From positions 64,189-128,188 of the forward strand of contig JADGBR010000004.1 in the NCBI GenBank assembly GCA_015231405.1: 64,000 bases of DNA, written 5' to 3'. Below, one piece after another: positions 3,207-49,570 of the stretch (the first letter of the stretch is position 1; every line of letters starts with the position of its first letter). The translations under genes and the position numbers were made by a program. The stretch comes from Candidatus Omnitrophota bacterium (lineage in GTDB: Bacteria; Omnitrophota; Gorgyraeia; Tantalellales; Tantalellaceae). Below the pieces are notes generated by a model that worked only from the letters and a program-made list of their open reading frames with translations, ran no database searches and had not been told where the DNA came from.

Positions 3207-3914
3207 TTATTTTTTATCTCTACCACGGGAGGCCAACAAGTGTATTTTTCTCATAGCGTAATACGGCAAACGCAACAACCTGTTAAATATCGGGTCATTG
3301 ATTCCGTGATAGACGGTACCGCCTCCAAGCCTTTCAATGGACTTCAATATGACCTCCCTGTCTCCCATAAATGGTTTGTTGCTATTTTTCCGATAACAGG
3401 GGCAAACTAAGCCATTGATATCCCGCAACAAGATAAGCGTATAATCGTTATATTTTACGAGCATATCCACGAATCCAACCGAGTAAAAGTTATTGCAGTG
3501 TCCTTTCCATTTCCCGGTTTCCTGAAAAGCTTTGATATCCGGCAGAAAATGGATGGCGATGCCTCCTGTTTTGAGGCAATCGTGGACGTTCTTGAAACAT
3601 GTATATTGCGCTTCGTAGGGTTCAACGTGTTCTAAAGTACCCGCGTTTGTAACAATGTCGAATTGGCTTAACCATTCAGGCTTTTTTATGGGCTTGGATA
3701 GATCAACTTTCAAGGCGCCGCGGCGGCCGTTGAGGTCGAAGGAGGTGTGGATGACTCCTCTATTAGTAAAATATTCTTTACCCGTTTTCTCCGGGATACC
3801 CTCGCCGGACACTTCCTGGTCGCCGAGCTCAAGCATTTTTTTGCCTCTTAAGTCGCCTATGCTCATGGCAGCGCATTCTAATATGTATTCCAGATATGGT
3901 TTTTTTAAGCCCAT
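3207..3914 (-). CDS. Class I SAM-dependent methyltransferase
   Basis: Motif I LELGDQ and a post-I acidic residue are present. The start is placed at the internal Met MGLKKPY because its ATG overlaps the upstream gene's TAA stop (TAATG), which is classic translational coupling. The 263-aa track ORF begins further upstream inside the neighbouring gene. Confidence 0.6.
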   Translation of the reverse strand: MGLKKPYLEYILECAAMSIGDLRGKKMLELGDQEVSGEGIPEKTGKEYFTNRGVIHTSFDLNGRRGALKVDLSKPIKKPEWLSQFDIVTNAGTLEHVEPYEAQYTCFKNVHDCLKTGGIAIHFLPDIKAFQETGKWKGHCNNFYSVGFVDMLVKYNDYTLILLRDINGLVCPCYRKNSNKPFMGDREVILKSIERLGGGTVYHGINDPIFNRLLRLPYYAMRKIHLLASRGRDKK

Positions 3915-5479
3915 TATCTCTTCTCCATATTTTTGAACATTTCGTTGACCTTTTCGGGCAGGAACATCTTCATTCTGTATTTCCTTTCGGCCGTCCATTT
4001 CCTTTCCTCAACAGAAAAACCCTCAAAAAGGTAGGCTTTGAAGGTCAAGGGGTGCGGGGATGAAGAAGCAAGGACCAGGCCTTTCGGGTCCTCTAATGGA
4101 AAATGGTCTTTCTTTATAGGAGACAAGAAATTCGTGTTGACGAGGAGCATAAGATCGTGGCCGGGACCGGTTTCCCATTGTTTGCCGGTCTCGTCTATCC
4201 TGGTTATCCGTTCTCTGGGGCAGTTTTTAGTATTCTTGTAAATGAAATATCGCGGATACTCTAAATCGAAATAGGCGCGGAAAAATATCAGGAAAGAGAT
4301 AATTGAGGTCCCCGCGACCGTCCAAACAGCTAACCTCCTCACACCCGGCAAAGAGATTTCCTTTATCGCCAAGACGAGAGCGATCACAAGCATCGGGATG
4401 TAAAAATGTATAAGCCTGCCGTAAAACACCACTTTATTGAAGAAGACACCCAGGATGCCGTGATAAAGATACAGGATAAGCGCGGCGGTTATGACGCTTT
4501 TATCGGGAGTGAATTTAAGAATATCTTTTCGTGTGCGGGATATCACATAGGCGAGAAAGCCGCATATAAGGATAGCACCCGCCGGTCCCTCGACCTGGAG
4601 AAGATATTTAACGATAAATACAAGGCTTTCGCTGAAAGTCCCCTGGGTGGCTGTTCCGCTGAGCTGAGCGAGATCGGCTAAATAGGGACGCCCGGCTATC
4701 CGCGAGATCACCTCGGTTATCGAAATAACACAACCGGCGGAAACAAAATATACCAGTATGCCGGGCAATATTCTGTCTTTAAGCAAAATGAAAACTATCC
4801 CGAAGAACGCTAAAATATTGCAGTAACCCGGATAGACCAGGAACGATAACGCGCTTAAAATACCGCATAACGCGTAGATCGATATCCCGGGTTCTTTGAC
4901 GGCCCTGACCCTGAGATACAGATACAGCGCAAGAAAAAAAATGGAAATAGCCATATCGTACGGGAAAATATGACGCAAATAAATATTTGAGTTACAGAGA
5001 AGAGCATACACTCCCGCGCCCAGGAATGATATCCTCCTTTCCCCGGAGAGCACGAAGATGATCCTGTAAAACAAGTAAAGCGCCCCGACAGAGACCGCCA
5101 CGTTAAAAAAACTGACGACACAAGGGAAATGATAACCGTACGGCGTTATAAGCCGCAGTTTTACGAGCAGTTGCTGCACTGCCGCTATCGGGATACAAGC
5201 GGCGATGAACCCGGGCCTTCCCTGGGAGTGGAACATATTGTAAAACGCGTCCCGAAAATGCCCATCTACCAGGGCCCCATACGCCTTATAAACCATATTG
5301 TACCTGAATTCGTCCGGAAAGAAGAACTGGCCTTTGTTTATTAGCGACAACCGAAGCAGAAACACGACCAGCAATAGAACAAATGTAAGAGAACCCCTAA
5401 CGAAAGGTTTCTGAAATGATATCATAATTCTATTTCGCTTCATAAAGGCCTTGGCAATTGCCCCATAAAATCTCGCCAT
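3914..5479 (-). CDS. Polytopic membrane glycosyltransferase, GT-C fold (ArnT/PMT-like, GT39/GT83-type)
   Basis: 521 aa and more than 10 predicted TM helices. FFFPDEFRY (a DE motif) lies in the first predicted periplasmic loop, and the C-terminal ~100 aa is soluble. The start is possibly at M19 (5425) rather than 5479, which would avoid overlap with the next gene. Confidence 0.55.
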   Translation of the reverse strand: MARFYGAIAKAFMKRNRIMISFQKPFVRGSLTFVLLLVVFLLRLSLINKGQFFFPDEFRYNMVYKAYGALVDGHFRDAFYNMFHSQGRPGFIAACIPIAAVQQLLVKLRLITPYGYHFPCVVSFFNVAVSVGALYLFYRIIFVLSGERRISFLGAGVYALLCNSNIYLRHIFPYDMAISIFFLALYLYLRVRAVKEPGISIYALCGILSALSFLVYPGYCNILAFFGIVFILLKDRILPGILVYFVSAGCVISITEVISRIAGRPYLADLAQLSGTATQGTFSESLVFIVKYLLQVEGPAGAILICGFLAYVISRTRKDILKFTPDKSVITAALILYLYHGILGVFFNKVVFYGRLIHFYIPMLVIALVLAIKEISLPGVRRLAVWTVAGTSIISFLIFFRAYFDLEYPRYFIYKNTKNCPRERITRIDETGKQWETGPGHDLMLLVNTNFLSPIKKDHFPLEDPKGLVLASSSPHPLTFKAYLFEGFSVEERKWTAERKYRMKMFLPEKVNEMFKNMEKR

Positions 5480-6600
5480 GGCAGGAATTCTATTTTTTCA
5501 TACTTATAGGGGCGAGGCGTAAAGCAAACACAGATAGCCCTTGTATGGCCATGGTCGCTGATAAAACTTCTAAGCCCCCTGACATCGCTTAAACGCGGCT
5601 CCCCCGAGGCCTTTATCTCGACAGCCCAGATCTCATCCCTGAACTCCAAGATCATATCTATTTCAGCCCCGTCCGATGTCCTAAAAAAACTCATCTTTGA
5701 CGCCGCCTCCGAGTAGTCAAGTATCCTTTTCGTTTCGACCATAATAAAATGCTCGAATGCCCTGCCATAGGGAGGAGTTCCCGCGACCAATCCGCTATAG
5801 ATGACATTTTTCAAACAGGCAACTATCCCGCAATCAAAAAAGTAAAACTTCGGATGGGACACTATTTTAGTCCGGCTTGATCTGCCATAAGGGTATATAA
5901 AAAAACCCAGCAGGGTATCTTCCAGGATCTGAAAATATTCTTTGATGGTCTTTGAATGAACGCCCACTTCACGGGCCAAACTCTGGTAATTGATCAGATT
6001 GCCGTTCTCATAAGCCGCCAACTCCTGGAACCTGGCGAAAGCCGGTATGTTCCTGATCAACGCTTCCTGGGTCACCTCTTCATTAAGATAAGTCTCAATA
6101 TAGCTTTTTAACAGCCGTATTTTATCTTCTCCTTTCTTTTCCAGGGCTATCTTGGGCAATGTTCCGAAAAGAAGAGCGTCTTCCAGAATAAAACCATCCC
6201 CCAGTTCCATATGCGTAAAAGGATAAAGATGTATCGTAATGGCCCTCCCTCCCAACAGGTTCGCGCCTGATCTCTTAAGTTTACGGGCACTTGATCCGGT
6301 CAAAATAAATTTCATCTTTGGTTTTTCTTCCATAAGTAACTGAACCTCATCCAGGAGCCCGGGTAAACGTTGGATCTCATCGATAACGATCAATCCCTCC
6401 TCTATATTTAACGCCCTTACTTCCCCGGAAAGCAAGGATACATCCCTGGCATATCGCATAAACTCGCTATGTTTAAGAAGATCGATAAAAATAACAGGAG
6501 ATAGGGTATTTTTTATTAAATACGTTTTTCCGGTCTGGCGAGGACCAAGTAGAAATAATGAGTGTTTGTATTTTTCTAGGCAGATTGTTCGTTGAGTCAT
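5440..6600 (-). CDS. AAA+ ATPase with DUF4143 C-terminal domain
   Basis: 386 aa. Walker A GPRQTGKT and Walker B VIDEIQ are present. The architecture is that of the widespread 'ATPase (AAA+ superfamily), DUF4143' proteins. Confidence 0.8.
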   Translation of the reverse strand: MTQRTICLEKYKHSLFLLGPRQTGKTYLIKNTLSPVIFIDLLKHSEFMRYARDVSLLSGEVRALNIEEGLIVIDEIQRLPGLLDEVQLLMEEKPKMKFILTGSSARKLKRSGANLLGGRAITIHLYPFTHMELGDGFILEDALLFGTLPKIALEKKGEDKIRLLKSYIETYLNEEVTQEALIRNIPAFARFQELAAYENGNLINYQSLAREVGVHSKTIKEYFQILEDTLLGFFIYPYGRSSRTKIVSHPKFYFFDCGIVACLKNVIYSGLVAGTPPYGRAFEHFIMVETKRILDYSEAASKMSFFRTSDGAEIDMILEFRDEIWAVEIKASGEPRLSDVRGLRSFISDHGHTRAICVCFTPRPYKYEKIEFLPWRDFMGQLPRPL

Positions 6601-6646: not shown

Positions 6647-7753
6647 TCATTTAAGCGATTTAGTCACTATGTCGTATATCCATCCTGCGATATATTGATT
6701 GCCTGTTCCGGTGTAATGGCCTTCGGAGTACGCGAACGAAAGGACCCCGGGCTTAAGAAAGAATTTGTCGATCTCTTCCTTAGACAGGTTCCTTAAAGGC
6801 GGCACGAGATCGATAAACGTAATACCATAAGAGGCTAATTTATCTTTAAGCAAAGCCCTCCATACGTCGGATCCGCTGCCATTAACATCCTGATATACGG
6901 GCAAATATACCACGTATAGCTTTGAGTTTCCAATTTTATCCAGCTCTTCGAAAAGTTTCAGCACCATTCCCTCGGCGGATTCAGGGGTGTCATATATTGT
7001 TACACTGGCTTTCTTGATCGCGTCAGTTTTAGGGAAAAAATGTCTGTGGATATCTTTCAAAAGCTTGAATGATCTTAATTCCCACATTATCCACAGATTA
7101 CGCGATAACCATGGGAATGAATACCATTTTTTGGGGACAGGGACGTTCTCTACCGCCAGTTCATTATTAACGAGCCTCAAAACCGGTTTCCCATAGCGCT
7201 GAAAAGTTTTCCACTGGGTCCTTCTGATGTCGTCTGTTATGAAAGCGAAAATATGGATGTCATGGTCGTATTTAACGCCGTCTTCCTCATACCACAGGTA
7301 TGACTGGTCGATGCCATAACCGCACTGGCCCATGTTGATAATTTCGAGACCCGGATCTATTTTTTCCATTAAAGACGGCCAGGTATCGTTATTCGCGACC
7401 CCGTAACCGAAAGTAAAAGAATCACCGGAACAAATTATTCTTTTTTTACCCGAGGGGATCTCTTTAGAGTATTCCTTATCCGCCCTGATCGATCCGGAAT
7501 TGATAGTTACATCATTGCCCGGGCCGAACATATCCGCGATATGCGTGTTCGGTATACTTTTCCAGCCTAAAAGGCTGTCATATCTGGTGTATAGCCTATC
7601 GGCTAAAGGGGGTTTGGCATTACAGGCTATGTCCCTAATGAACAGCACCAGGCTGGAAGTGCCTTCAAATAGGATAAAGATCGCGACAAAGACCAGAATT
7701 AAGAGCGCTATATTCCCTGCAGCTCTTTTTATTATCCCCATTGTTATCCTCAC
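6647..7753 (-). CDS. Membrane-anchored SGNH/GDSL hydrolase family protein
   Basis: 368 aa. It has an N-terminal TM helix, then the SGNH block I ICSGDSFTFGYG, and a later DxxH-like region. Confidence 0.6.
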   Translation of the reverse strand: MRITMGIIKRAAGNIALLILVFVAIFILFEGTSSLVLFIRDIACNAKPPLADRLYTRYDSLLGWKSIPNTHIADMFGPGNDVTINSGSIRADKEYSKEIPSGKKRIICSGDSFTFGYGVANNDTWPSLMEKIDPGLEIINMGQCGYGIDQSYLWYEEDGVKYDHDIHIFAFITDDIRRTQWKTFQRYGKPVLRLVNNELAVENVPVPKKWYSFPWLSRNLWIMWELRSFKLLKDIHRHFFPKTDAIKKASVTIYDTPESAEGMVLKLFEELDKIGNSKLYVVYLPVYQDVNGSGSDVWRALLKDKLASYGITFIDLVPPLRNLSKEEIDKFFLKPGVLSFAYSEGHYTGTGNQYIAGWIYDIVTKSLK

Positions 7754-7761
7754 TCTACTTT

Positions 7762-9363
7762 TTATGGATACGGCTGTATCTTGACGGGTTGCCGCTGTTC
7801 TCCAACTTCAAGGAGCCACTTTTTTCTGTCCTTGTAGTATTCGAACAGATCCGAATTATCCGCCATATCCCTCGCCCAAACGACGGATGAGGCGTCAATG
7901 TCGGCGTTATTATAAACCCACTCTTCATGGACAGTATGCCCCGAAAGATATTTTACTACCACCAGATGCTTCTTGCCCGTCTTTTCGAGATATCGTTCGA
8001 TCTTAGCGCGCTCTTTGCCGTGTAAATAAATTTCCGAATTCCTGTCCTTTCTCAGGTTTACGACCCCGCCTATGAATAGCAGTACGGCTAAAAGAATATA
8101 ACCCCCGAGAAGAAACCGGCCTATCTTTTTACCGCCTGTATTTACCCCTGATATCTCCCCAAGCGCTTTAACCGACAATAAGAAAACAAGCCCGGTAAAT
8201 GGCGCGGCATAATGAGAGTAGAAGTGCACAGACAAACCGATGACAATGAAATACGCTATCAAAATGACATAAGCGAAAACCGCCCATTTATCGCGCCTGA
8301 ACGATAGTGCCGGATAAATTAGAAGTATTCCAAAATATATGCCGTAAAGCAATTTCCCGCCCCAGAAATTCCATAGTTCATTTATCCGTTCTCCGTAACG
8401 GGTGATAATATTTCCGGGTTTATAAAATTCCGGCGAAGTCTTATCCTCATAAAATATCTTCATTTCGATATTATTGTAAACGGGCGCCGGCTTAACACCC
8501 TGCCATACAAAAACAGGGGTTGGGCAGTATTGTTCTTCGTAAGCCTTATACGGCATTTCCAGGGCATCTCCCGTCAGGCGGTAGTTGTAATATCCCATCC
8601 AAAGGACGATGGGGACTAAGAGAACGACCAAAGGCAAAAACAATTTTCTAAGGATATTCGCCGGAGTACACCCTTCTTTTTTCATGAAGAGGACCAGCGC
8701 AAGTATCGAAAGCGCCCCGAGGATCAACCCTTCCCACGGCCTTGTGTTGGCCAAGACGGCAAGACCAAGCGCCAGGGGCAGGATATTTTTCATCTTTTTA
8801 TCCCCGAGAAAACGCGGCAGAGAACCAATAAGCAATGCTCCACCAAAAGCCGCCACGGCTCCCCCGAAATAGGTCTGGCTCCTATATCCCCCGACTCCGA
8901 GATACAAGTGCGTTATCGCCATCATACCGCCTATTATGGCCCAGGGAGGGCGCACAAATCCCCAAAGCATCCATGTTATACTCCCGGCCATTAGCGTAAG
9001 CCCTATCCATATACCCGCCGCGGCGTCACCCGCGAGAACCTTACCCAACGCGAGTACCAACCCCTGTCCGGGAGGATATTTTGACATGTAAGTAGGTTTT
9101 TGTGTCAGGTGAAATGTCTCAAAATGTCTCCACATGGGATGGGTCGGATTCGTAAGCCTGCCATGCGAAAAAGTGTCGGCGGCAAGCAGGTAACTATATT
9201 CGTCGTGGATCCTCGGGACCGGTTTGCCGATGACCCCCGAAACCCCGGCGGCGAGAAAAAAAGCCAGCAGAGAAACGAGACAAACAGACAATAACTGGTT
9301 GTCAAATAACGTTTTAGGACGCAGCATATGACTAATTCTAAAGAAAAAGACTCCGGCTTTCAA
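7762..9363 (-). CDS. Polytopic membrane glycosyltransferase, GT-C fold (PMT/ArnT-like with DE motif)
   Basis: 533 aa and about 12 TM helices. PRIHDEYSY (DE motif) sits after TM1. It is arranged divergently from a polyprenyl-phosphate sugar synthase gene. Confidence 0.6.
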   Translation of the reverse strand: MKAGVFFFRISHMLRPKTLFDNQLLSVCLVSLLAFFLAAGVSGVIGKPVPRIHDEYSYLLAADTFSHGRLTNPTHPMWRHFETFHLTQKPTYMSKYPPGQGLVLALGKVLAGDAAAGIWIGLTLMAGSITWMLWGFVRPPWAIIGGMMAITHLYLGVGGYRSQTYFGGAVAAFGGALLIGSLPRFLGDKKMKNILPLALGLAVLANTRPWEGLILGALSILALVLFMKKEGCTPANILRKLFLPLVVLLVPIVLWMGYYNYRLTGDALEMPYKAYEEQYCPTPVFVWQGVKPAPVYNNIEMKIFYEDKTSPEFYKPGNIITRYGERINELWNFWGGKLLYGIYFGILLIYPALSFRRDKWAVFAYVILIAYFIVIGLSVHFYSHYAAPFTGLVFLLSVKALGEISGVNTGGKKIGRFLLGGYILLAVLLFIGGVVNLRKDRNSEIYLHGKERAKIERYLEKTGKKHLVVVKYLSGHTVHEEWVYNNADIDASSVVWARDMADNSDLFEYYKDRKKWLLEVGEQRQPVKIQPYP

Positions 9364-9370
9364 GTTATTC

Positions 9371-9399
9371 TTGCCAATTTTCCGAAATTACGATATATT
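9371..9399 (+). promoter_or_regulatory. Sigma70-like promoter TTGCCA-17-TATATT; near-leaderless mRNA for the GT2 gene at 9411
   Basis: The -35 box is at 9371-9376 and the -10 box at 9394-9399. The predicted TSS is about 5 nt before the ATG. The region also serves the divergent GT-C gene. Confidence 0.45.
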
Positions 9400-9410
9400 C
9401 CATCTACCTT

Positions 9411-10568
9411 ATGAAAAAACCTTCACCTTTAGTGTCTATAGTAATGCCCTGCCTCAACGAAGAAGAAACACTCGGGATATGCATAGAAAGGTCTAAAGCT
9501 GTTCTTAAAGACAATGCTATTGACGGCGAGATCATTGTTTGCGATAACGGATCGACCGACAGATCTGTGGAAATAGCACGGAGCCTGGGCGCTAAGGTTG
9601 TCCACGAACCAGAAAAAGGGTACGGCAACGCTTATCTTAAAGGATTTTCGGAAGCGCGCGGCGAATATTTCGTAATGATCGACGCCGATAATACCTATGA
9701 TTTCTCCCAGATACCGGTCTTTATTGAAAAACTTGAGAAAGAGTGTTATGACTTCGTCACCGGCAAAAGAATATTGAATTCACCGGGGACAGGGGCGATG
9801 TCATCTTCTCACTTCTTCGGGAATAAGATACTGACCTTCCTTCTGAACATTTTTTTTGGCACGAATTATACCGATGTCTACTGCGGCTTCAGGGCATTTT
9901 CCCGGGGAGCGTATGACAGGATAAAACCTGTCAGCGAAGGAATGGAATTCAACCTGGAAATAGCGATCAACGCCGCTAAGGACCATCTCAGGATCATCGA
10001 GATCCCCACTTCTTTATCACCAAGGAAGGGACAATCCAAACTTCGAACTTTCTACGACGGATGGAGAAGCCTTCGCCTTATGATCCTTTACGCGCCGAAT
10101 AAAACATTCGTTCTGCCAGGTTCCCTGGCAGGGATCACGGGGCTTATTCTCCATGCGCTATCCATGGCCGGTGTTTTCAATAAGCCTGTCTCCTCCGGCA
10201 ATTCGATATCCGGTATCGCGGGGATGATACTGAGCATTTTAGGTTTACATATTCTAAGCCTCGGCCTTTACACAAAGACCTACAGCCTATCGAGAAAATT
10301 CGAACGGAAAAACCAGTTCCTTGTGAACTTCTACAGCACGTTCAAACTTGAACACGGCATGACCTTGGGATCGCTGTTACTCGCCGGGGGGATCATATCG
10401 TTCTTATTGCTCATACCGCGCCTTTCGGCTATGAATTTTGAATCGGTCCTACCGGGGATGCTCTTTTCTTCGACAATTATCATATCGGGCGTCACTATCA
10501 TTTTCTCATCATTATTCATTTCGGCGATGAGCCTTGGCGGGAATCAAATAGTTAAAAAGGGTACTTAA
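9411..10568 (+). CDS. GT2-family polyprenyl-phosphate sugar synthase (ArnC/GtrB/DPM1-like)
   Basis: 385 aa. The N-terminal GT-A domain has SIVMPCLNEE, a DxD-like motif in VCDNGSTD, and MIDADN. The C-terminus has 3-4 TM helices, which is typical of Und-P-sugar synthases. Confidence 0.8.
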   Translation: MKKPSPLVSIVMPCLNEEETLGICIERSKAVLKDNAIDGEIIVCDNGSTDRSVEIARSLGAKVVHEPEKGYGNAYLKGFSEARGEYFVMIDADNTYDFSQIPVFIEKLEKECYDFVTGKRILNSPGTGAMSSSHFFGNKILTFLLNIFFGTNYTDVYCGFRAFSRGAYDRIKPVSEGMEFNLEIAINAAKDHLRIIEIPTSLSPRKGQSKLRTFYDGWRSLRLMILYAPNKTFVLPGSLAGITGLILHALSMAGVFNKPVSSGNSISGIAGMILSILGLHILSLGLYTKTYSLSRKFERKNQFLVNFYSTFKLEHGMTLGSLLLAGGIISFLLLIPRLSAMNFESVLPGMLFSSTIIISGVTIIFSSLFISAMSLGGNQIVKKGT

Positions 10569-10661: not shown

Positions 10662-11009
10662 ATGGATAATTCAGGGATCGGCGGGATAGATCGGGAACTG
10701 ATCGATAAGATAATCGAGACGATATTGCGGCGCAAATCCGTCGAAAAGATAGTTATTTTCGGGTCAAGGGCTTCAGGGGACCATGGAAGGACGTCCGATA
10801 TCGATATCGCCGTTTTCGCCGAAAAATGGTCGAGGACAGATTTCGCGCTAACCAAGGATGATCTGGAGGAAACAGTTCTAACTCCTTTGAAATTCGACCT
10901 GGTGGACTACCATGATCTTGCCGAAGGATCCCTCAAAAATAACATTTTGGCGAAAGGGAAGGTCATATATGACAAAAGAACGGATCAGGCAGCTTTACGG
11001 GGACTATGA
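10662..11009 (+). CDS. mntA: MntA-type minimal nucleotidyltransferase (antitoxin of a HepT/MntA TA pair)
   Basis: 115 aa. It carries the GS-x9-D-x-D nucleotidyltransferase signature GSRASGDHGRTSDIDIAV. Confidence 0.8.
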   Translation: MDNSGIGGIDRELIDKIIETILRRKSVEKIVIFGSRASGDHGRTSDIDIAVFAEKWSRTDFALTKDDLEETVLTPLKFDLVDYHDLAEGSLKNNILAKGKVIYDKRTDQAALRGL

Positions 11010-11370
11010 AAAGGCTCTACTTAAGCTGGAAGAGATCCTGAAAGAAAAACCGGTTAAAGGCAGCATAGTCGTCGACGCGACCATTAAACGGTTTGAATTC
11101 ACCTATGAGCTAGCCTGGAAACTCATGCAGAAGATCCTGGATCACGAGGGGATAGAAGTCAACTCGCCCAGGTCGGCGATAAAGGAATCTTTCCGGGAAA
11201 AGATAATAACCGACGGCCAGGGCTGGATCGAGATCCTCGAGGCCAGGAACAGGACTTCACATATTTATAATGAAACGCAGGCTTTAGAAATATGCAGGGA
11301 TATAGAAAATAAATTCTACGATAACTTCCGGGCGCTCAGAGACTCCGCGTCTAACTTCTTGAAACAATAA
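10969..11370 (+). CDS. hepT: HepT-like nucleotidyltransferase substrate-binding protein (HI0074 family; HEPN toxin)
   Basis: Start is placed at the internal Met MTKERIRQLYGDY. It overlaps the mntA 3' end by about 40 nt, as is typical for HI0073/HI0074 pairs. The sequence is helical and HEPN-like. Confidence 0.7.
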   Translation: MTKERIRQLYGDYEKALLKLEEILKEKPVKGSIVVDATIKRFEFTYELAWKLMQKILDHEGIEVNSPRSAIKESFREKIITDGQGWIEILEARNRTSHIYNETQALEICRDIENKFYDNFRALRDSASNFLKQ

Positions 11371-39190: not shown

Positions 39191-40171
39191 TTGGAGCCTG
39201 ATATGATAGCCGGTCCGGACCTTCAATGTATATTCTGTAGAGGCGCTCTGGATAAGACGCCGCGTTTTATCGTCACCGATAAGCTTGCCCTTGGCCGGAA
39301 AATACCCTACCGGTTCCACAGGTGTTCCCTCTGCGGATCGGATATACTCGCCGGAGGAGTGGACGAAGGCGAGAATTCGAAGACATATGAAGAGAACTAC
39401 ATGTTCAGCATGGATGAGAAAGGCGGACGCCTCCGAAAGGCGCTGCAAAAAGCGGAATGGAACCTCTTCTACAAGAGAACTTACCTTTCCGACGCGCGGC
39501 TCATCGAAAAGTACATGGGCGGGAGACGTTTCAGACTATTGGATGTCGGATGCGGGTCGGGCCTCCGTGTTAAATGTTTCGGGGAATACGGGTTCGACGC
39601 CCGCGGGATCGAGACATCACACCCGGCGGTCGAATACGCGGCCAACAAACTTGGCTGTGACGTAAGGCTTAGATCCCTCCGGGACTGTGTCATTGCGAGA
39701 GAGAGCTACGATATAGTCACATCTTACGCCGTGCTCGAGCATATTACCGACCCTTCGGTTTTTATCGCCGATCTCGTTAAATTGCTTAAGCCCGGAGGGC
39801 TACTGCTCTTAAGGGTCCCGCTCGCCGGATCGTTCCAGATGAGGATTTTCGCCGGGAGCCACAGCCTTTACAGGGAAGCTCCACGGCATGTCTGGATACC
39901 CTCATTTAAAGCGATGACGGAAAATATCGAAAAGTTCGGGTTGTCGCTTATCGGGCACCGGAGTGAGCCTCTTCTTAGCGCAGCCAGCCACGCGAGTTTG
40001 TCATTGTTCCCTATGGCCGCTAACGCTATCGCGGTAAAGGTCGGCTTAAGAGGGGTATTTTACAGGTTGGTTGGAGCACTTTTGGCCGTTTTCCCCGGAA
40101 TACCTCTGGCGCTTGCCGATTCTTTCCGGGGCGTCGGGGCGCATACGGATTTTGTTTACAGGAAGTCCTAG
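39191..40171 (+). CDS. Class I SAM-dependent methyltransferase with N-terminal Zn-ribbon (CxxC...CxxC)
   Basis: 326 aa. Motif I is LLDVGCGSG. The N-terminus has CIFC...CSLC. Confidence 0.7.
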   Translation: MEPDMIAGPDLQCIFCRGALDKTPRFIVTDKLALGRKIPYRFHRCSLCGSDILAGGVDEGENSKTYEENYMFSMDEKGGRLRKALQKAEWNLFYKRTYLSDARLIEKYMGGRRFRLLDVGCGSGLRVKCFGEYGFDARGIETSHPAVEYAANKLGCDVRLRSLRDCVIARESYDIVTSYAVLEHITDPSVFIADLVKLLKPGGLLLLRVPLAGSFQMRIFAGSHSLYREAPRHVWIPSFKAMTENIEKFGLSLIGHRSEPLLSAASHASLSLFPMAANAIAVKVGLRGVFYRLVGALLAVFPGIPLALADSFRGVGAHTDFVYRKS

Positions 40172-40227: not shown

Positions 40228-42688
<2,461 letters not shown>

Positions 42689-42781
42689 CTATATCCTCCT
42701 TACTATTTTAAATAGTAGCTCCTCCATTAAAAATCCCGCGCCCCGACATCGCGAACCCCGGGAAGCGGGGTGAAGCGATCT

Positions 42782-43786
42782 CTATTGGGATTGCTTCGTC
42801 GCCTTCGGCTCCTCGCAATGACGGAGCTGATCCAAAATTCTGTCATGGCAAAGGCCATTAGTGGCTATAATGCCGATATTATTCTCGAGCGACCGGTCGA
42901 AACTGAAGTCAAGGGGTTTGCCGGTTATGTCAGTCACTTTGCCTCCGGCTTCTTCTACTATTACGCACCCGGCGGCGTGGTCCCATATCATCTGCCGGTA
43001 GTCCGGGGTTAGAGGCGACTGCATCCTGAGATATGCCGAGACATCTCCTCTCGCCACGAGGGCGTATTTAGCCTGGCCGTCTATACGCGTATGCGGAGCT
43101 GATACTCCAAGCCGTCCATATAAACGGTCATGGGCGGCGTGATCGGTATGGGCTGATTCGAAGCTTTCGACGAATTTGAGTTCACCCGGATCTTTATCGG
43201 CCGAAACATGTATACTCCTGGATACCGATATGTCCTCTATCCATATCACCCGAGCGCCGCGGCGTTTTTCGGCGACGAAAATACAACCCTTCTTCCCGTC
43301 TTCGTAGTCGATGTTCGGACAGCCAAGCGCGCCGAAAAGGATCTCGCCGTTCTCGATCAGAGCCAGGGCTATGGCGTATTGGCCGCCCCTTAAGAACCCT
43401 TTGGTGCCGTCTATGGGGTCGAGCACCCATTTCCTGGACGGCCCTCTTTTATGATCGCAGTCTATCCACCGGGATATGTTCGCTAACGATACTTCCCCGG
43501 GGAAAATATCTCCGACAAGACCCACGATCTGTTCGACCATTTCATTATCGCCGGAAATAAGGCCGGAAGAGTGTTCTTCGGCTACGACGGGTTCTCCCGG
43601 AAAATGTTCGCGGAGTTCCCTGCATATGACGGCCTGGGAGGCGTAATCGGCGACGGTCACGGGGCTTTTGTCGGATTTCTTCTGGGACCGGTACAGGACG
43701 AGATCGGCCTGGACCTTTATGCAGATCCGCGACGCGGCGAGTACCGCCTTAACCGCTATTTCTGTCTCTTTTGTCAGCTCCGCCAT
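42782..43786 (-). CDS. cysQ: 3'(2'),5'-bisphosphate nucleotidase (CysQ/inositol-monophosphatase family)
   Basis: 334 aa. WVLDPIDGTKGF is the metal-binding signature. Confidence 0.75.
   Translation of the reverse strand: MAELTKETEIAVKAVLAASRICIKVQADLVLYRSQKKSDKSPVTVADYASQAVICRELREHFPGEPVVAEEHSSGLISGDNEMVEQIVGLVGDIFPGEVSLANISRWIDCDHKRGPSRKWVLDPIDGTKGFLRGGQYAIALALIENGEILFGALGCPNIDYEDGKKGCIFVAEKRRGARVIWIEDISVSRSIHVSADKDPGELKFVESFESAHTDHAAHDRLYGRLGVSAPHTRIDGQAKYALVARGDVSAYLRMQSPLTPDYRQMIWDHAAGCVIVEEAGGKVTDITGKPLDFSFDRSLENNIGIIATNGLCHDRILDQLRHCEEPKATKQSQ
42787..42822 (+). repeat. Solo copy of the MITE core motif (GGGATTGCTTCGTCGCCTTCGGCTCCTCGCAATGAC)
   Basis: The arms are the same as in the other copies. 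The central spacer is a different small palindrome (GCCttcGGC). It overlaps the cysQ stop codon region. Confidence 0.6.
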
Positions 43787-43802
43787 AAGTCAGCCCTCGG
43801 AT

Positions 43803-44867
43803 CTACATATACAGGTAATCAAGCCCCACTTCGCCCTTGTTCTCCAATAACTCAATATCGGCTTTCACCATTATCTCGACCAGTTCCGTGAATTTTACCT
43901 TCGGGGACCATCCCAGCTCTTTCCGGGCTTTGGATGGATCTCCCAGGAGCTGTTCTACCTCGGCCGGCCTGAAGTACTGGGGGTCGATCTCTATAAGGAC
44001 CTTGTTCTTTTTCTTGCAAAGACCTTTCTCGGTAACGCCTTTACCCTGCCAGACGATATCTATCCCCGCGCATTTGAAAGCTTTCTCTGAGAATTCCCTG
44101 ACGGTATGGTTCTCTCCCGTCGCGATGACATAATCCCCGGGTTCGTCCCTATCCATCATCATCCACATGGCCTCTACGTATTCCGGCGCGTATCCCCAGT
44201 CCCTTTTCGCGTCCAGATTGCCGAGATATACTTTTTCCTGAAGCCCGGCTTTTATCTTGGCAACCGCGCTGGTTATTTTGCGGGTGACGAACCGCGAGTC
44301 CCTTCTCTCCGATTCGTGGTTAAAAAGTATGCCGTTACAGGCGAACAAGCCGTAAGCCTCACGGTAATTCACGGTTATCCAGTACCCGTAGACCTTGGCG
44401 GCCGCGTACGGGCTTCTCGGGTAGAACGGAGTGGTCTCTTTCTGCGGTATTTCCATGACCTTCCCGAACATCTCGCTCGATGACGCCTGGTAGAACTTGG
44501 CTTTTATCCGCACCTCTCTTATCACGTCAAGGAGCCTTAAAACCCCGAGCGCGTCGGTATCGGACGTATACTCGGGCTGGCTGAATGAGACCCCTACATG
44601 GCTCTGCGCGGCGAGATTGTATATCTCATGCGGCTCTATCTTCTCGATAAGCCTGCTCAAATTGCTCGAGTCGACCATATCGCCGTAATGGAGATGGAAC
44701 TTCACCCCTTTCTCATGCAGGTCCTTGTAAAGGTGGTCCAGCCTCTGCGTATTGAAATTCGACGCCCTCCTTATTATCCCGTGCACTTCGTAGCCTTTTT
44801 TGAGCAAGAGCTCCGCGAGATATGAACCGTCTTGGCCGGTTATGCCGGTTATCAGAGCTTTTTTCAT
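43803..44867 (-). CDS. gmd: GDP-mannose 4,6-dehydratase
   Basis: 354 aa. [47 protein letters not shown] is a near-canonical Gmd N-terminus. Confidence 0.95.
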
Positions 44868-44913: not shown

Positions 44914-45657
44914 CTAAACAGGTTTTTTCGCCACACAGAAAACCGACGATCCGAAGGGAAACGTAACCCTTAACAATAATTCATTCTCCAGGAACAACAC
45001 GCCTTTCAGCATATCGTTAATAAAACCTGGTAATCTGTTCAACCCGGCGATGTTCTTTTTATGACAGAACGGGAATACCCTCTCCAATAACCGGCCTGCC
45101 AGAAGGACGGGAAACAGCAGCGAATCCCTGTAAGTTATCCTTTCAATGGCGAACCCGGCGTTAAGTACCTTCATTTTTACCTCACCCAGGGTATACCTGT
45201 GCTTCGCGTGAACAAGCTCATCGTGTTTCGCGGTCAGAAAAGAGAATGCCGGGACGTTGACTATAAATAACCCGCCGTCAGTCATGACCCTGAATATTTC
45301 CGACAATGCCGCCATATCGTCCCCTACATCCCTGTGGTACAACACACCCATCGAAACTACAACTCCGAAACTCGAACTTTTAAAAGGCAGCCCCGATACC
45401 GACGCCCGGGCAAGCCGCGTCAAATTCCTTTTTTTGCAGAAACGAAGCGCTTCGGACGATATATCGACCCCGTATGCCTCGCGCCTCCCTAAGGAAGCGA
45501 GCAGCCCACCCGTCCCGCACCCGGCGTCAAGGAGCTTTGTTCCGTACCAATTTCCGCAATATCCCTCCAAGGTCCTCGAAAGGAACCTTTTCTGGGCTTC
45601 ATACCACCAGTACGAATCCTCAAGCTCATACATTTTAGCGTATTCCGGTATTTCCAT
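44914..45657 (-). CDS. Class I SAM-dependent methyltransferase
   Basis: Start is at MEIPEYAKMYELED. Motif I is LLDAGCGTGGL. The track ORF extends to 45786 and would overlap the upstream gene. Confidence 0.7.
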   Translation of the reverse strand: MEIPEYAKMYELEDSYWWYEAQKRFLSRTLEGYCGNWYGTKLLDAGCGTGGLLASLGRREAYGVDISSEALRFCKKRNLTRLARASVSGLPFKSSSFGVVVSMGVLYHRDVGDDMAALSEIFRVMTDGGLFIVNVPAFSFLTAKHDELVHAKHRYTLGEVKMKVLNAGFAIERITYRDSLLFPVLLAGRLLERVFPFCHKKNIAGLNRLPGFINDMLKGVLFLENELLLRVTFPFGSSVFCVAKKPV

Positions 45658-46585
45658 CCCTCTCCCCGTGCAACCCCCTAACGACGTACTGGGGCGTCTG
45701 GTTGTTATATAGGAACAACCTTCCGATATATTCCCCCAGGAGGCCCAGCGTAAGGAGCTGTATACCGGAAAAGACCATGATGGCAATGATCAAGGACGGG
45801 TACCCCACGACCAGCCCGGGGTTTTTTATCTTTTCCGTGATAACGACCCCGCTGAATACCACCCCGAGCACGCTTAGGAAAATACCGAGAAAAGTACTTA
45901 TCCTCAACGGGTTGATAGAAAAATTCACGAACATGTTCAGCCATAAAAGGAAAAGTTTCCGTAATGTATACCCCGACCCGCCCGAATAACGGTCCTCATG
46001 GCGCACCTTTACCCGGCCGATATTGTTCGTGCACCTCAATATCAACCCATCTATGTAAGGGAAAGGCCCCCTGTACTTTATTATCTCGCCGGCCACGAAA
46101 CGGCTTACGCATTTGAAACTGGATAAATACAGGTCCTTCGGCTTATCCATCACCAGGTTCGCCACAAAATGGTTAAACCTGCTGCCAAGGTTCCTGGCCC
46201 ATGAATGTTTCTTCTCATCGTACTGGACATAAACAACGTCTAAAGACCCAGCCAGCGCTTTATCGAAGAGGATGGGAACTTCTTCCGGGGGATTTTGGAA
46301 GTCATCGTCCATTATAACCACGTTATCCCCGGTAACGTGGTTAAGCCCGGCCATTACGGCGTTATGCTCCCCGAAATTCTTCGAAAGCTCCAGGTACATG
46401 ACCGAGCCTTTATATTTCCCGGCCAGGGCCAGGCACGCCCCATGGCTGTTATCCCGGCTGCCGTCGTTCACAAGGATGATCTCAACGCCCTGTTTCCCGA
46501 GTATCTCTATAAGCTTATCCACAAGCATGGTTATTGTCTTTTCTCCGTTATATACGGGTATTACCAAGGATCGCTTAATATCCAT
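45635..46585 (-). CDS. GT2-family polyprenyl-phosphate sugar synthase (ArnC/GtrB/DPM1-like), second copy
   Basis: 316 aa. Motifs: LVIPVYNGE, ILVNDGSRD and a DxD in VIMDDDFQ. The C-terminus has two TM helices. Confidence 0.8.
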   Translation of the reverse strand: MDIKRSLVIPVYNGEKTITMLVDKLIEILGKQGVEIILVNDGSRDNSHGACLALAGKYKGSVMYLELSKNFGEHNAVMAGLNHVTGDNVVIMDDDFQNPPEEVPILFDKALAGSLDVVYVQYDEKKHSWARNLGSRFNHFVANLVMDKPKDLYLSSFKCVSRFVAGEIIKYRGPFPYIDGLILRCTNNIGRVKVRHEDRYSGGSGYTLRKLFLLWLNMFVNFSINPLRISTFLGIFLSVLGVVFSGVVITEKIKNPGLVVGYPSLIIAIMVFSGIQLLTLGLLGEYIGRLFLYNNQTPQYVVRGLHGERDGNTGIR

Positions 46586-46950
46586 TTTTTCTCCCGATAG
46601 AGTTGAACAAAGCCGAAATATCCTTTGACAAAGGGTTATACCTCATGAAAATATCCAGGAATTTAAACGGCAAAGTGAAAAGCATCATGATGCCCAGCAG
46701 GATATTCCGCAGGCGTTCGTTCCCGAAAGACAGAATGATGGCCACCCATCCCTGGAATACCCATAGTCGGGCGGCTGTTCACCCCCAGCCCCATTATCCC
46801 GAACCCCTGGATCCACATTATCACGCGGAAAAACAACGGCATTTATCACATCGGCCTGGACCCGGGTATTACCGGACCCGAGGTTCATGAAAACCCCTTC
46901 TTTCCCATTTAAGGATATCATACTCATCGCGGGGAATAAAGCCCGCCTGT

Positions 46951-47943
46951 TTAAAATCTTTTCCTGACATACCTTCCAACCTTGCGCAAACTGACACCAC
47001 GGTTCGGGAAACCGCATATCTCATTCAAAACTTCTCCCGCGACCCTAATGACGGACGCTTCACCGGCGCTGACGTACTTGAAACCCTCATAGGGGCACGT
47101 GCAGTCTATAAGGGGGCACGGGGCGGGTGTTTTGTCGGGTGTGTACTTCCCTTTAAGAAGGTTGCCGTATCTCTTGTACGAGCTCGAGCAGCGGTAGAGG
47201 TTGCCGGAGGGGTCCATGCGGAAATAATCCATCCCCGTCCGGCATGGGTTTCCGAAATAATTGACGCTCGTGTTCATGACCTTCTCTTCCCGGGGATCGA
47301 GGGAGTATTTATAGATGAACTCTTTTTCCTCGCGGGTAAAAGCGGCCGGATATTTTTTGCCGTTATGGTATCCCCTGAAAGTCTTGGCGTTAACGAGCTT
47401 GATCCCGCGAGATTTCAGGTATTTTACGTCCAGGGCCATTTTTTCCAATAGACGGGGGTATGTCAGATATCCTACATCGATATTGAAACCTTTCTCCTGG
47501 AGGATGAGCACCTTTTCAATAAAATGATCTATGCCGGCAGGATTTTTCTCTCGCGCGGTTTTATGGAACCCGGCGTTCAGGAAAACGACCTTATCGGGCG
47601 ATATCCTGTTAGCGAATTCCCTGACGTTCAAGGTCGAAAGATTGGTATTAAGAGATATGAAGTGCCCTTTCGTCAGCTCGGCGCAAAGATCGACGAATTT
47701 CGGGTAAAGGAACGGCTCGCCGCCCGACATGTGTACCTGCCAGACCTTACCGGTATCGTTAAAACACCCGGCGATATGAGCGGGACCGTATTTGCCGCAA
47801 TCGGGATGCTCCTTCGACAGTTTCTCCTCGCCGCAAAAACAGTACTCGCAACGGAAATTGCACAGGTTATTAAGCTGCCAGAAGACCATGCTGTCCGGCC
47901 GTTTACCGCTCGTACCCTTAATATCCCTTGTAAAGTCGCTCAT
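46951..47943 (-). CDS. Radical SAM protein with SPASM-like C-terminal Cys cluster (anSME/BtrN-like architecture)
   Basis: Start is at MSDFTRDIKG. WQLNNLCNFRCEYCF (CxxxCxxC) is near the N-terminus. The C-terminus has CRTGMDY...CPLIDCTCPYEG. The track ORF extends to 48018. Confidence 0.7.
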   Translation of the reverse strand: MSDFTRDIKGTSGKRPDSMVFWQLNNLCNFRCEYCFCGEEKLSKEHPDCGKYGPAHIAGCFNDTGKVWQVHMSGGEPFLYPKFVDLCAELTKGHFISLNTNLSTLNVREFANRISPDKVVFLNAGFHKTAREKNPAGIDHFIEKVLILQEKGFNIDVGYLTYPRLLEKMALDVKYLKSRGIKLVNAKTFRGYHNGKKYPAAFTREEKEFIYKYSLDPREEKVMNTSVNYFGNPCRTGMDYFRMDPSGNLYRCSSSYKRYGNLLKGKYTPDKTPAPCPLIDCTCPYEGFKYVSAGEASVIRVAGEVLNEICGFPNRGVSLRKVGRYVRKRF

Positions 47944-47944
47944 A

Positions 47945-49570
47945 TTAAGATCTGTCCGAATACACCACGAATTCCCCTTCGGGGTATCTGAACGCTTTCC
48001 TTTCGTATTTACCGGCATTGAACCATGCTTCTGACCCTAGAAGGAAATCCTTTTCGAGCCCGGGGAAGACGGCTATTGTCTTTATATTCTCGGGGTCCTT
48101 GATATCCTTGAGCCATCTTCCCGTGTATCTCGTTTTGGCCTCTTCTTTCAGCCTTCGGGTCTCGGCCTTATCCACAAAAACGCGATCGGTGAAAATGAAC
48201 ATGTAATACAGGTTCTCCCCGGAGATCTGCCCGTAATGGGATAGATATACCGGCATCGTAAAAGAGGCTTCGCAGTTAATAACAGGGTCCACGACCGCCA
48301 GGATCCTGTCTTTTACCCCGGCGGTTCTTATGATCTCTTTCAAAAAGGCGTTAGTCTGCTTACCTTCGTCAGCAAGATATTTCACGCGGAAATATCCATA
48401 GCCCAGGCGCGGTATGAACATCAGGAATACCAGGGTAAAAAAAACCAGTTTTGAGAACACGGTTACCCTTTTATCTTTCCTTATCCGCCGGATCAGATAG
48501 ACCACCATAAAAGCCGTGCCCAGGAACGCCGGCAATAGGAACCTGTGGACGAGCCCGGTCTTGTTGTAGAGCGCCATCTCGGGGATCAATATCAGTAGAA
48601 ATAGGGTTAAAGCCTTAAAGGTATCAGTCCCGAATATCTTTTTAACGGAAAGCGCGTCTATTTTCCTTTTATCCCCGAAATAGGACTCGCCCACGATGAA
48701 TACGCCGAAGAATATCACAAGGACAGGGATTAGCTCGATAAGATCCAGCAGGAACAATTTGAATTCACGCGCAGCGAAAAGAGGATTTCTTATCATCATC
48801 GCAAGAAAAGTACCCTCACCAAAACCGGCCATCGATTCCTTGTGGATATCTACGTAATGTCTGATGATGTAAATATCGAACGCCAGTATCGAGAATAACA
48901 CCGCGGCGGCGGTGATATTACCCGCGGCAGCGCGAATAAATGGAACATTATCCCTTTTTGAACACAGCCATACCTTCCAGAAAAAGAACGCCGGAACGAT
49001 CACAATGAAACTCTCCTTACACAGTGATGAGATGAAAAGCATGGATAAAGATATGACGCCATACGCCTTCCCTCCCGAGCGCACCCCTTTAGCCATAAAA
49101 AAAAGGGCCCCCGAGAAAAATACCATACCTATCGACTCCGCCACGCCCAGCCGCCACCAGATGGGGACCTGCTGCCCAATAAGCGTCAAAAAAGAAAAAA
49201 ACAGCGATTCGGCCGCATCGTATCCCATAGCGCGCATAAAAAGGAAGAGGAAATACGCGCAAACGACAGCCAAAAAGGTATGGTAGACATAAAACAGTTT
49301 GAAATTATCCCCGAACGATCGGATCTCCAGGAACCTGTGCAGGTTCCTGAACGGCCTAAACCTTATATGTTCCTTAAAGATCTCATCCAATACGCTTTTT
49401 TTGGCTCCGGCAAGAAAGCCCGTGCCATTATTCCCCCGAGCGCCTGAAAGTATCTGAGAATCATCCTTAAAATGGAACCCGGAACCCAATGTTCCGCTAA
49501 TAATGAGCAAACCGGAGTAAAACGATACTATAAACAATAAAACCAGCAGATTCGTCCTCATAGTTAGCAC
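47945..49570 (-). CDS. Polytopic membrane protein, probable GT-C-type glycosyltransferase
   Basis: 541 aa and about 12 TM helices. FKDDSQIL (an acidic pair) follows TM1. The C-terminal ~130 aa is soluble. Confidence 0.4.
   Translation of the reverse strand: MLTMRTNLLVLLFIVSFYSGLLIISGTLGSGFHFKDDSQILSGARGNNGTGFLAGAKKSVLDEIFKEHIRFRPFRNLHRFLEIRSFGDNFKLFYVYHTFLAVVCAYFLFLFMRAMGYDAAESLFFSFLTLIGQQVPIWWRLGVAESIGMVFFSGALFFMAKGVRSGGKAYGVISLSMLFISSLCKESFIVIVPAFFFWKVWLCSKRDNVPFIRAAAGNITAAAVLFSILAFDIYIIRHYVDIHKESMAGFGEGTFLAMMIRNPLFAAREFKLFLLDLIELIPVLVIFFGVFIVGESYFGDKRKIDALSVKKIFGTDTFKALTLFLLILIPEMALYNKTGLVHRFLLPAFLGTAFMVVYLIRRIRKDKRVTVFSKLVFFTLVFLMFIPRLGYGYFRVKYLADEGKQTNAFLKEIIRTAGVKDRILAVVDPVINCEASFTMPVYLSHYGQISGENLYYMFIFTDRVFVDKAETRRLKEEAKTRYTGRWLKDIKDPENIKTIAVFPGLEKDFLLGSEAWFNAGKYERKAFRYPEGEFVVYSDRS

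Follow-up and report, generated by a model that had tools for sequence, protein, structure and literature searches.

A candidate periplasmic glycan-decoration system in a surface-glycan island of an uncultured Omnitrophica bacterium

A glycan locus of an uncultured Omnitrophica bacterium raises the question of what four polytopic membrane proteins, each with a pair of acidic residues shortly after its first transmembrane (TM) helix, are doing beside two membrane-anchored glycosyltransferases of family GT2. The locus lies in 64,000 nucleotides of the 130,279-bp contig JADGBR010000004.1 (assembly GCA_015231405.1, positions 64,189 to 128,188 of the forward strand), and this whole stretch is hereafter called the window. 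It covers most of a 50-kb surface-glycan biosynthesis island, which spans 445 to ~52,000 of the window in Pfam and NCBIfam scans and runs beyond its left edge. An earlier reading of the same DNA (the original prediction) had proposed a periplasmic-face glycosylation system. This is also our best reading, and it is backed by the recurrence of two synthase/glycosyltransferase gene pairs in other genomes. We consider it probable that the island encodes a Gtr-like periplasmic glycan-decoration system with a cytoplasmic and a periplasmic stage, in which each of the two GT2 enzymes would supply one GT-C glycosyltransferase.

We designated the polytopic proteins C1 (3914-5479, minus strand; NCBI locus tag HQL30_03505), C2 (7762-9363, minus; HQL30_03520), C3 (40228-41751, plus), and C4 (47945-49570, minus; HQL30_03705), and the TM-anchored GT2 proteins GT2-A (9411-10568, plus) and GT2-B (45635-46585, minus). 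All six open reading frames (ORFs) were found where the original prediction had placed them. Their start codons are uncertain by 3-18 codons, which does not affect the motifs; the NCBI proteins of C1, C2, and C4 have 503, 521, and 538 residues, compared with 521, 533, and 541 residues in the ORFs.

Fold and family of the four polytopic proteins

C1-C4 are all polytopic, with 7-13 hydrophobic segments per protein in hydropathy analysis. The acidic pair is located 9-12 residues past the first hydrophobic helix, which is preceded by Lys or Arg in each protein. The pair is D56-E57 in C1 (motif FFFPDEF; TM1 at about residues 29-47), D54-E55 in C2 (HDEYSY; TM1 at residues 23-45 in the structural model), D48-E49 in C3 (RECDEVVEY), and D36-D37 in C4 (HFKDDS). 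Because C1-C4 have a low content of acidic residues, chance would rarely place such a D[DE] pair in the first 20 residues behind TM1; it is expected in only 3-6% of composition-matched random loops for each protein. Conservation is a stronger argument than this expectation. D56 and E57 are invariant among 47 aligned relatives of C1, D54 and E55 are invariant and H53 is nearly so among 47 aligned relatives of C2, and among 70 aligned relatives of C4 the conservation of D36 and D37 is 90% or more. The Asp-Glu pairs of C1-C3 and the Asp-Asp pair of C4 can thus be read directly from the translations, as originally described, and are retained in the three aligned families. Their interpretation as the hallmark of monosaccharide-donor enzymes of the PMT/ArnT type went too far. 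PMT enzymes do carry an Asp-Glu pair in loop 1, but an acidic pair after TM1 is a mark of GT-C enzymes generally, oligosaccharyltransferases (OSTs) included, and does not single out those with monosaccharide donors. Judging from the whole-length fold matches described below, the loop that bears the pair probably faces the periplasm.

C3 is a PMT_2-family GT-C glycosyltransferase. It matches the Pfam PMT_2 model (2.6e-9; 37.9 bits against a cut-off of 26.1) and, weakly, TIGR03663 (Agl23). A metagenome scan for relatives of C3 returned none.

C2 belongs to a very large, unnamed family of GT-C-fold glycosyltransferases and has an HDE[FY]SY motif, ~13 TM helices, and a small C-terminal alpha/beta domain. 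It has no Pfam or NCBIfam match; its relatives match no such model either, and PMT_2 is hit by none of 47. More than 4885 relatives were found, and members of the family occur in at least 590 GTDB species, mostly of Acidobacteriota and also of Planctomycetota, Desulfobacterota, Binatia, Methylomirabilis, Rokubacteria, and Verrucomicrobiota. The AlphaFold2 model of C2 (predicted local distance difference test (pLDDT) 89.3, predicted template modelling score (pTM) 0.90) shows ~13 long helices, one of which starts at D54, right after TM1. In a Foldseek search against the PDB, the best 30 matches were all GT-C enzymes (TM-score 0.32-0.55). ArnT (5ezm) was first (1.2e-5), followed by PglB, AglB, ALG12, STT3, Pmt4, ALG9, AftA, and EmbA/B, and unrelated folds appeared from an E value of ~0.5.

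C4 represents a second unnamed family of GT-C-fold glycosyltransferases, which comprises 1316 cluster representatives. It has the motif HFxDDH after TM1, IWWRLG, and SLCKESF, and residues R70, E145, K185, and E186 are invariant among the 70 relatives. C4 itself has no Pfam or NCBIfam match. Four of the 70 relatives match PMT_2 weakly, one matches PMT, and one matches Wzy_C at 6.4e-5. The AlphaFold2 model, which was built from five sequences, has a pLDDT of 68.5 and a pTM of 0.68. Its best ten Foldseek matches were STT3 and the C-mannosyltransferase DPY19, with E values down to 5e-5, and these were followed by PglB, PIG-U, Pmt1/2/4, and PimE.

C1 belongs to a small unnamed family (47 relatives) with the invariant D56-E57 pair and the motifs RPG, RHxxPYD, and YPG. 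C1 has no direct Pfam or NCBIfam match. Five of its 47 relatives weakly match PMT_2 (best 1.2e-6), one matches PMT, and one matches GtrII. Based on its polytopy, the invariant pair, and these weak family matches of its relatives, C1 is a probable GT-C glycosyltransferase.

The four proteins show no detectable paralogy to one another, because profile-profile comparison among the C1, C2, and C4 families and C3 gave probabilities below 3%. Searches of the PDB sequences with C1-C4 as single sequences, and with the C1, C2, and C4 families as profiles, returned nothing relevant. Taken individually, each of C1-C4 either is or very probably is an enzyme of the GT-C fold. The description of all four as PMT/ArnT-like therefore needs to be divided. 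The GT-C part is borne out by PMT_2 for C3, by the folds of C2 and C4, and by the weak matches of the relatives of C1, whereas membership in GT39 or GT83 falls away except for C3. Because C3 alone passes PMT_2, we limit the term PMT/ArnT family to this protein. An assignment of the four proteins to the Wzy/WaaL type was considered and rejected: hidden Markov model scans for the O-antigen ligase/Wzy families gave no Wzy_C match in C1-C4, and the significant Foldseek matches of C2 and C4 are GT-C proteins, none of them of Wzy/WaaL type.

Lipid-sugar synthases and their conserved neighbours

GT2-A resembles polyprenyl-phosphate hexose synthases and has four C-terminal TM helices. It matches Pfam Glycos_transf_2 (1.7e-32), and its best PDB matches are the four-TM dolichyl-phosphate mannose synthase (DPMS) of Pyrococcus furiosus (5mlz; 1.2e-14, residues 6-249) and ArnC (1.5e-10, residues 4-287). 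The best NCBIfam models are AglJ and a haloarchaeal dolichyl-phosphate hexose transferase, and relatives of GT2-A carry Pfam GT2_TM_C. GT2-B, which lies in the operon of C4, is of the ArnC/GtrB type, with a GT2 domain and two C-terminal TM helices. Its PDB matches to ArnC (9hwj; 3.5e-39) and Synechocystis GtrB (5ekp; 3.5e-37) extend over residues 3-307 and include the TM helices. Its best NCBIfam models are PgfS (158 bits) and ArnC (154 bits); the latter score lies well under the ArnC cut-off of 529 and does not make it an ArnC equivalog. Because GT2-A and GT2-B are homologous to the solved structures of ArnC, GtrB, and DPMS, including the TM region, we assign both as polyprenyl-phosphate glycosyltransferases. 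As judged from this full-length homology, the two proteins are the lipid-sugar synthases that had been predicted, transferring sugars to polyprenyl phosphate.

The C2 and GT2-A genes of the window adjoin each other in divergent orientation, with 47 bp between them. We surveyed 80 genome loci with C2 relatives, with up to 8 kb of flank each, and a full-length orthologue of GT2-A was present near the C2 relative in at least 15 loci from several phyla (226-262 bits, or 217-262 bits with L086 counted in; 3-6 TM helices; mostly within ~1 kb). Because there are few such genes per genome, we estimate that chance adjacency would amount to ~1%. Two extra C2/GT2-A pairs were found in L086 (L-numbers designate the compared loci that carry C2 or C4 relatives) and in a JGI contig, where the neighbour is annotated as GT2 plus GT2_TM_C.

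The C4 family was traced by a metagenome scan seeded with a five-sequence alignment, because the deep alignment was too divergent. Of 31 metagenome loci with C4 relatives, 12 have an orthologue of GT2-B (121-159 bits) next to the C4 relative. The two genes share a strand, with the synthase gene most often directly upstream; many of the other loci are not long enough for a judgement. The GT2-B/C4 pair is also present in L089 and L090, and in L089 a TMEM234-like membrane protein of 117 residues sits between the synthase and the C4 relative. A methyltransferase gene repeatedly separates the synthase gene from the GT-C gene (L018, L087, L089, L099, and L104), an arrangement that may be compared with the methyltransferase gene at 44914-45786 in the window. 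Relatives of GMD or Fcl flank the GT2-B/C4 pair in L104 and L105, as they do in the window. Thus, C2/GT2-A and C4/GT2-B are conserved gene pairs. This adjacency lends indirect support to a predicted use of lipid-phosphate-linked sugar donors by the GT-C enzymes.

Relatives of C2 also occur in other arrangements. In the Planctomycete-type locus L001 (4243-8581; also L002 and L005), a C2 relative ends a four-gene operon in the order short-chain dehydrogenase/reductase (SDR), short GT2 (258 residues), SDR, and C2. The first SDR of L001 has STCEVYG...RWIYACAKELLERIIYAY and seems closely similar to the decarboxylase domain of E. coli ArnA. If this likeness holds, the operon would encode an Arn-like pentose route with a C2-family enzyme in the role of ArnT. 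A recurrent C2 module was observed in the Acidobacteriota loci L009, L031, L068, L080, and L083, around the match at ~8000-9600 (3636-5621 in L083). It contains a protein of 675-707 residues with 13-16 TM segments, divergent upstream, and GT2-A downstream on the opposite strand. A protein of 414-442 residues with 7-9 TM helices accompanies GT2-A there in L031, L068, and L083, and L080 instead has an ORF of 512 residues with six TM helices on the other strand. The gap of 0.6-0.8 kb between C2 and GT2-A holds a soluble ORF in most of these Acidobacteriota loci, and L031 has no gap. None of the extra proteins of this module matches a gene of the window. In L087 (6001-9412), tandem C2-family paralogues of 572 and 590 residues, preceded by a GT2 gene and a methyltransferase gene, lie in an O-antigen-type cluster with Wzm/Wzt (ABC-2, Wzt_C).

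The proposed system and competing explanations

Based on these assignments, we propose the following scheme. Cytoplasmic enzymes would make CMP-nonulosonic acid, GDP-6-deoxyhexose, and amino sugars; Leloir transferases of GT2 and GT4 would build a lipid-linked glycan, and a PglK-like ABC transporter would flip it. At the cytoplasmic face, GT2-A (DPMS/AglJ-like, four TM helices) and GT2-B (ArnC/GtrB-like, two TM helices) would each load one sugar, taken from a nucleotide sugar, onto polyprenyl phosphate, and the lipid-linked monosaccharide would then reach the outer leaflet, presumably by flipping. C2, supplied by GT2-A, and C4, supplied by GT2-B, may then move the sugar onto the exported glycan or another envelope acceptor, a transfer in which the acidic pair of external loop 1 would take part. 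C1 and C3 probably share the donors of GT2-A and GT2-B or use a donor encoded elsewhere. The fold and family assignments, the motif conservation, and the gene pairing are observed, whereas we infer the donor sugars, the acceptor, the topology, and the flipping step. The sugar-nucleotide, glycosyltransferase, flippase, and tailoring genes that fill the island provide the context for this scheme.

Three-component periplasmic glycosylation is known from GtrABC, from the streptococcal SccN/SccM and SccP/SccQ proteins, and from the GT136 system of Citrobacter (PMC11754754; PMC11127046). The GtrA/GtrB/GtrC systems of Salmonella and Shigella, Scc, and GT136 share with the window a GT-A-fold membrane synthase and a polytopic GT-C enzyme that acts outside the cytoplasm, encoded by adjacent genes, and several such pairs may occur in one glycan locus (PMC11754754; PMC11127046). 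The locus of S. mutans has two synthases and two GT-C enzymes (SccN/SccP and SccM/SccQ), and its flippases likewise await identification (PMC11754754). Several GT-C enzymes in one island are therefore not surprising in themselves, and the multiplicity that the original prediction had called unusual has a characterised precedent. GT2-B is a full-length GtrB homologue. In contrast to the Gtr-type systems, the window has no recognisable GtrA, SMR, or MATE gene and contains four GT-C genes for two clear synthases; its C1, C2, and C4 families lack Pfam and NCBIfam models, and GT2-A is of the four-TM DPMS/AglJ type, not the GtrB type.

The pair of Dol-P-Man synthase and PMT (GT39), together with archaeal AglJ, offers a second comparison. 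The best matches of GT2-A are P. furiosus DPMS and AglJ, and C3 is in PMT_2. In contrast to PMT, neither a MIR domain nor a PMT C-terminal domain was detected in the window proteins, and a protein acceptor is not indicated.

Several observations weigh against the proposed system. Within 8 kb of the C2 relative, a full-length orthologue of GT2-A is lacking in about 80% of cases, and the model of C4 is of moderate quality (pLDDT 68.5). Relatives of C1 elsewhere do not adjoin GT2 genes, and C1 and C3 have no partner synthase in the window. No flippase of the GtrA, SMR, or MATE type for the lipid-linked monosaccharide was recognised, and there is no small multi-TM ORF anywhere in the window. Furthermore, the window scans found no ligase or OST for the flipped glycan, and one of the GT-C enzymes may therefore do this job instead.

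This last point leads to a different explanation, in which at least one GT-C protein, most plausibly the unpaired C1 or C3, would be an OST or ligase of a new family that moves the whole PglK-flipped glycan from undecaprenyl diphosphate to a protein, to lipid A-core, or to another acceptor. PglB, AglB, and STT3 (GT66) have the GT-C fold and are the top or near-top structural matches of C4 (STT3 best) and C2 (PglB and AglB second and third), and a PglK-like flippase lies inside the island. No ORF of the window matches Wzy_C (WaaL/PglL) or the PglB family, the GT-C genes outnumber the clear synthases by four to two, and a C1 relative in Hymenobacter directly follows the gene of a surface protein of 1588 residues of the type IX secretion system. 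This explanation stays in play because no ligase was recognised and because there are fold matches of the STT3/PglB kind. In contrast to the GT66 enzymes, a regular-expression search found WWDxG in none of C1-C4; C4 has only WWRLG at residue 138, in a loop of the membrane domain, and the Pfam scan gave no GT66 (STT3) match. C2 and C4 are also tied by conserved synteny to synthases of monosaccharide carriers, which together with the lack of WWDxG disfavours an OST role for these two proteins, and a ligase could lie outside the window, since the island exceeds its left edge. We regard the OST/ligase explanation as unlikely on balance. A more specific form seems to us a rather speculative combination: C1, C3, or both would be a new-family OST or ligase for a PglK-flipped nonulosonic-acid glycan and, separately, C2 and C4 would found new CAZy families of GT-C enzymes, with C2 coupled to a four-TM DPMS-like synthase across Acidobacteriota, Planctomycetota, and other phyla.

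The original prediction had also compared two adjacent genes with the ArnB/ArnA pair, which makes UDP-4-amino-arabinose. They encode a DegT-family sugar aminotransferase (37027-38220) and an atypical extended SDR (38133-39116), in overlapping ORFs on the minus strand. The aminotransferase scores 231 bits on PseC and 217 bits on ArnB (cut-off 631), with similar scores on other models, all far below their cut-offs, and by these scores it is a generic enzyme of its family. The SDR scores highest on RmlB-type 4,6-dehydratases (134 bits), followed by LegB (124), GalE (113), the UXS type (57), and ArnA (45.6; cut-off 777). NGVNK stands at its YxxxK site, and STRQIYG replaces the acid-base motif TDE/TSE. 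When the protein is aligned with four other extended SDRs, it shows Asn at the position of the catalytic Tyr, whereas the Lys is conserved; the enzyme may thus be inactive or use a non-canonical mechanism. Pfam scans of the window and a search for small membrane ORFs revealed no formyltransferase, ArnD/deformylase, or ArnE/F-like gene. The adjacency of a DegT gene and an SDR gene therefore stands, whereas the Arn identity does not: the SDR is 4,6-dehydratase-like with Asn for Tyr, and the identification as an ArnA/ArnB pair was rejected on the model scores and the active-site residues.

These results bear on an Arn-like lipid A modification, in which the SDR and the DegT enzyme would make a UDP-4-amino-pentose, a GT2 enzyme would load it onto undecaprenyl phosphate, and an ArnT-like GT-C enzyme would add it to lipid A. 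ArnC and ArnT (GT83) do resemble window proteins: the similarity of GT2-B to ArnC extends along the entire protein, C2 has ArnT as its best structural match, an acidic residue follows TM1, and the aminotransferase reaches 217 bits on ArnB. The PMT_2 family of Pfam, to which C3 belongs, includes ArnT. Against this stand the preference of the SDR for the RmlB-type model over those of UXS and ArnA, its STRQIYG and NGVNK motifs where ArnA and UXS-type enzymes have TSE and YxxxK, Arn equivalog scores that all lie far below the cut-offs, and the absence of an ArnA-type decarboxylase, formyltransferase, ArnD, and ArnE/F in the window. In addition, C2 shares 14% identity with ArnT and has no PMT_2 match, and the SDR/DegT pair adjoins neither synthase. 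An Arn-like route in this island is therefore highly improbable, and we retain the Gtr-like decoration system as the best explanation.

Composition of the island and implications

The genes around the proposed system are those of an elaborate surface glycan. A fused ABC exporter of the PglK/MsbA type (22811-24610, minus; Pfam ABC_membrane and ABC_tran) scores best on PglK (330 bits, below the cut-off) and 275 bits on MsbA in NCBIfam, and is the likely flippase of the main lipid-linked glycan. A CMP-nonulosonic acid pathway (24621-29839, minus) comprises a LegC-type aminotransferase, a cytidylyltransferase, a radical S-adenosylmethionine (SAM)-SPASM protein, NeuC (402 bits, above the cut-off of 236), and NeuB (390 bits against a cut-off of 399.65), with PseF-like and LegC-family matches. 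Two soluble proteins of 345 and 337 residues without Pfam or NCBIfam match (20766-22803, minus) are encoded just upstream of the exporter. No sialyltransferase-like family was recognised in the island, although CMP-nonulosonic acid appears to be made, and these two proteins are therefore candidate sialyltransferases. The island also contains a WbuZ-type amidotransferase subunit, acetyltransferases, a NanM-like O-methyltransferase, Leloir transferases of GT2 and GT4, FkbM and other methyltransferases, SGNH proteins, and a trio of GFO, hexapeptide-transferase, and GT2 genes. Within the window, no initiating phosphoglycosyltransferase, Wzx, Wzy, WaaL, PglL, or PglB was recognised, the island extending past the left edge, and a whole-window Rfam scan gave zero matches.

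The minus-strand order around GT2-B is C4, radical SAM, GT2-B, methyltransferase, GMD, PAP phosphatase, and Fcl-like. The GDP-6-deoxyhexose genes, Fcl-like (41738-42685; 262 bits) and GMD (43803-44867; TIGR01472, 567 bits, above the cut-off of 415), flank a HAL2-type PAP phosphatase gene (42782-43786; 291 bits, above the cut-off of 267) in this operon (41738-44867, minus). The SAM methyltransferase directly downstream of GT2-B (44914-45786, minus) matches Pfam Methyltransf_11/25. The radical SAM protein between C4 and GT2-B (46951-48018, minus) matches Pfam Radical_SAM and is STM4011-like (NCBIfam rSAM_STM4011, 1.2e-14, below the cut-off); no such gene was seen adjoining C4 relatives in the other loci. 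The 365 bp between this gene and GT2-B (46586-46950), upstream of the latter, have no membrane ORF, no convincing ORF, and no Rfam match. An ORF of 110 residues at 46685-47017, which has no TM segment and no family match, was discounted as a gene.

A second SAM methyltransferase gene (39191-40171, plus; Pfam Methyltransf_23/11) lies immediately upstream of C3 on the same strand. A short GT2 protein of 240 residues without TM helix (51222-51944, plus) matches Pfam GT2 and, best in NCBIfam, ArnC (56 bits, far below the cut-off); it is a possible, weak candidate for a third lipid-sugar synthase. Short GT2 genes without TM helices are also found near C2 and C4 relatives in several loci. Directly downstream of C2, a membrane-anchored SGNH/GDSL-like protein (6647-7753, minus) has an N-terminal TM helix, a weak match to Pfam Lipase_GDSL_2, and a match to the NCBIfam LA_2490 GDSL model (1.3e-6).

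Further observations concern the tailoring of the glycan. A sulfotransferase (31376-32194, minus), the PAP phosphatase, and a secreted or anchored sulfatase (53233-54894, minus) together suggest a sulfated glycan, and sulfatase-family genes also flank C4 relatives in L094, L097, L098, and L116. Three B12-binding radical SAM enzymes (14990-16642, 18519-19925, and 29974-31383, minus) accompany the radical SAM-SPASM protein (26573-27655, minus) and the STM4011-like protein. Together, they amount to unusually heavy radical chemistry for sugar tailoring, such as C-methylation, in one island. In the middle of the island are a papain-family (C1) peptidase (34474-35214, minus) and a protein of 361 residues without family match (35994-37079, minus), whose sequence appears repetitive and strand-like by eye.

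Other genes and the base composition give the island a mosaic appearance. Between GT2-A and the long minus-strand glycan operon, a nucleotidyltransferase (MNT/Polbeta) and a HepT-like substrate-binding protein (10662-11370, plus) resemble a toxin-antitoxin pair. An ATPase gene of the AAA_14/DUF4143 type (5440-6600, minus) breaks the row of C2, SGNH, and C1 and overlaps the C1 start. It has probably been inserted into the row and probably has no part in glycan synthesis. Over 1-64000, the G+C content lies at ~0.41-0.47 in the intervals 2-10 kb and 28-36 kb and at 0.50-0.53 in the interval 36-46 kb, as would fit an island put together from pieces of diverse origin.

The four GT-C genes could accordingly be independent passengers with different targets, for example protein O-glycosylation, lipopolysaccharide core, and exopolysaccharide. 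C1-C4 are mutually unrelated, their genes fall into three or more transcription units distributed over the two strands, the G+C content ranges from 0.41 to 0.53 across the island, and the toxin-antitoxin pair and the AAA_14/DUF4143 gene interrupt it. The contexts of their relatives are also diverse, including stand-alone genes, Wzx/Wzy clusters, and Wzm/Wzt clusters. However, all four genes are within a single contiguous glycan island, and two of the GT-C proteins keep their conserved synthase partner here. We find this explanation improbable as a whole; it differs from the Gtr-like system in the acceptor only.

The new elements in this locus are the C1, C2, and C4 families, which lack Pfam and NCBIfam models, the very large size of the C2 family, and its tie to a DPMS-like four-TM synthase rather than to a GtrB-type enzyme. 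Because the mechanism is an established paradigm, the gain lies in annotation and enzyme discovery rather than in a new principle. GT-C enzymes are difficult to detect by sequence, and three of the four described here fall outside every Pfam and NCBIfam model. In phyla of soils and sediments (Acidobacteriota, Planctomycetota, Binatia, Methylomirabilota, and others), the C2 family numbers thousands of proteins, every one of them annotated as 'hypothetical'. Its fold, the HDE[FY]SY motif, and the partner synthase make the family annotatable and testable, as is also the case for C4 with its GtrB-like partner. For the organism itself, the Omnitrophica island predicts a heavily tailored surface glycan that contains nonulosonic acid and 6-deoxyhexose, bears methyl and sulfate groups, and receives side-chains in the periplasm.

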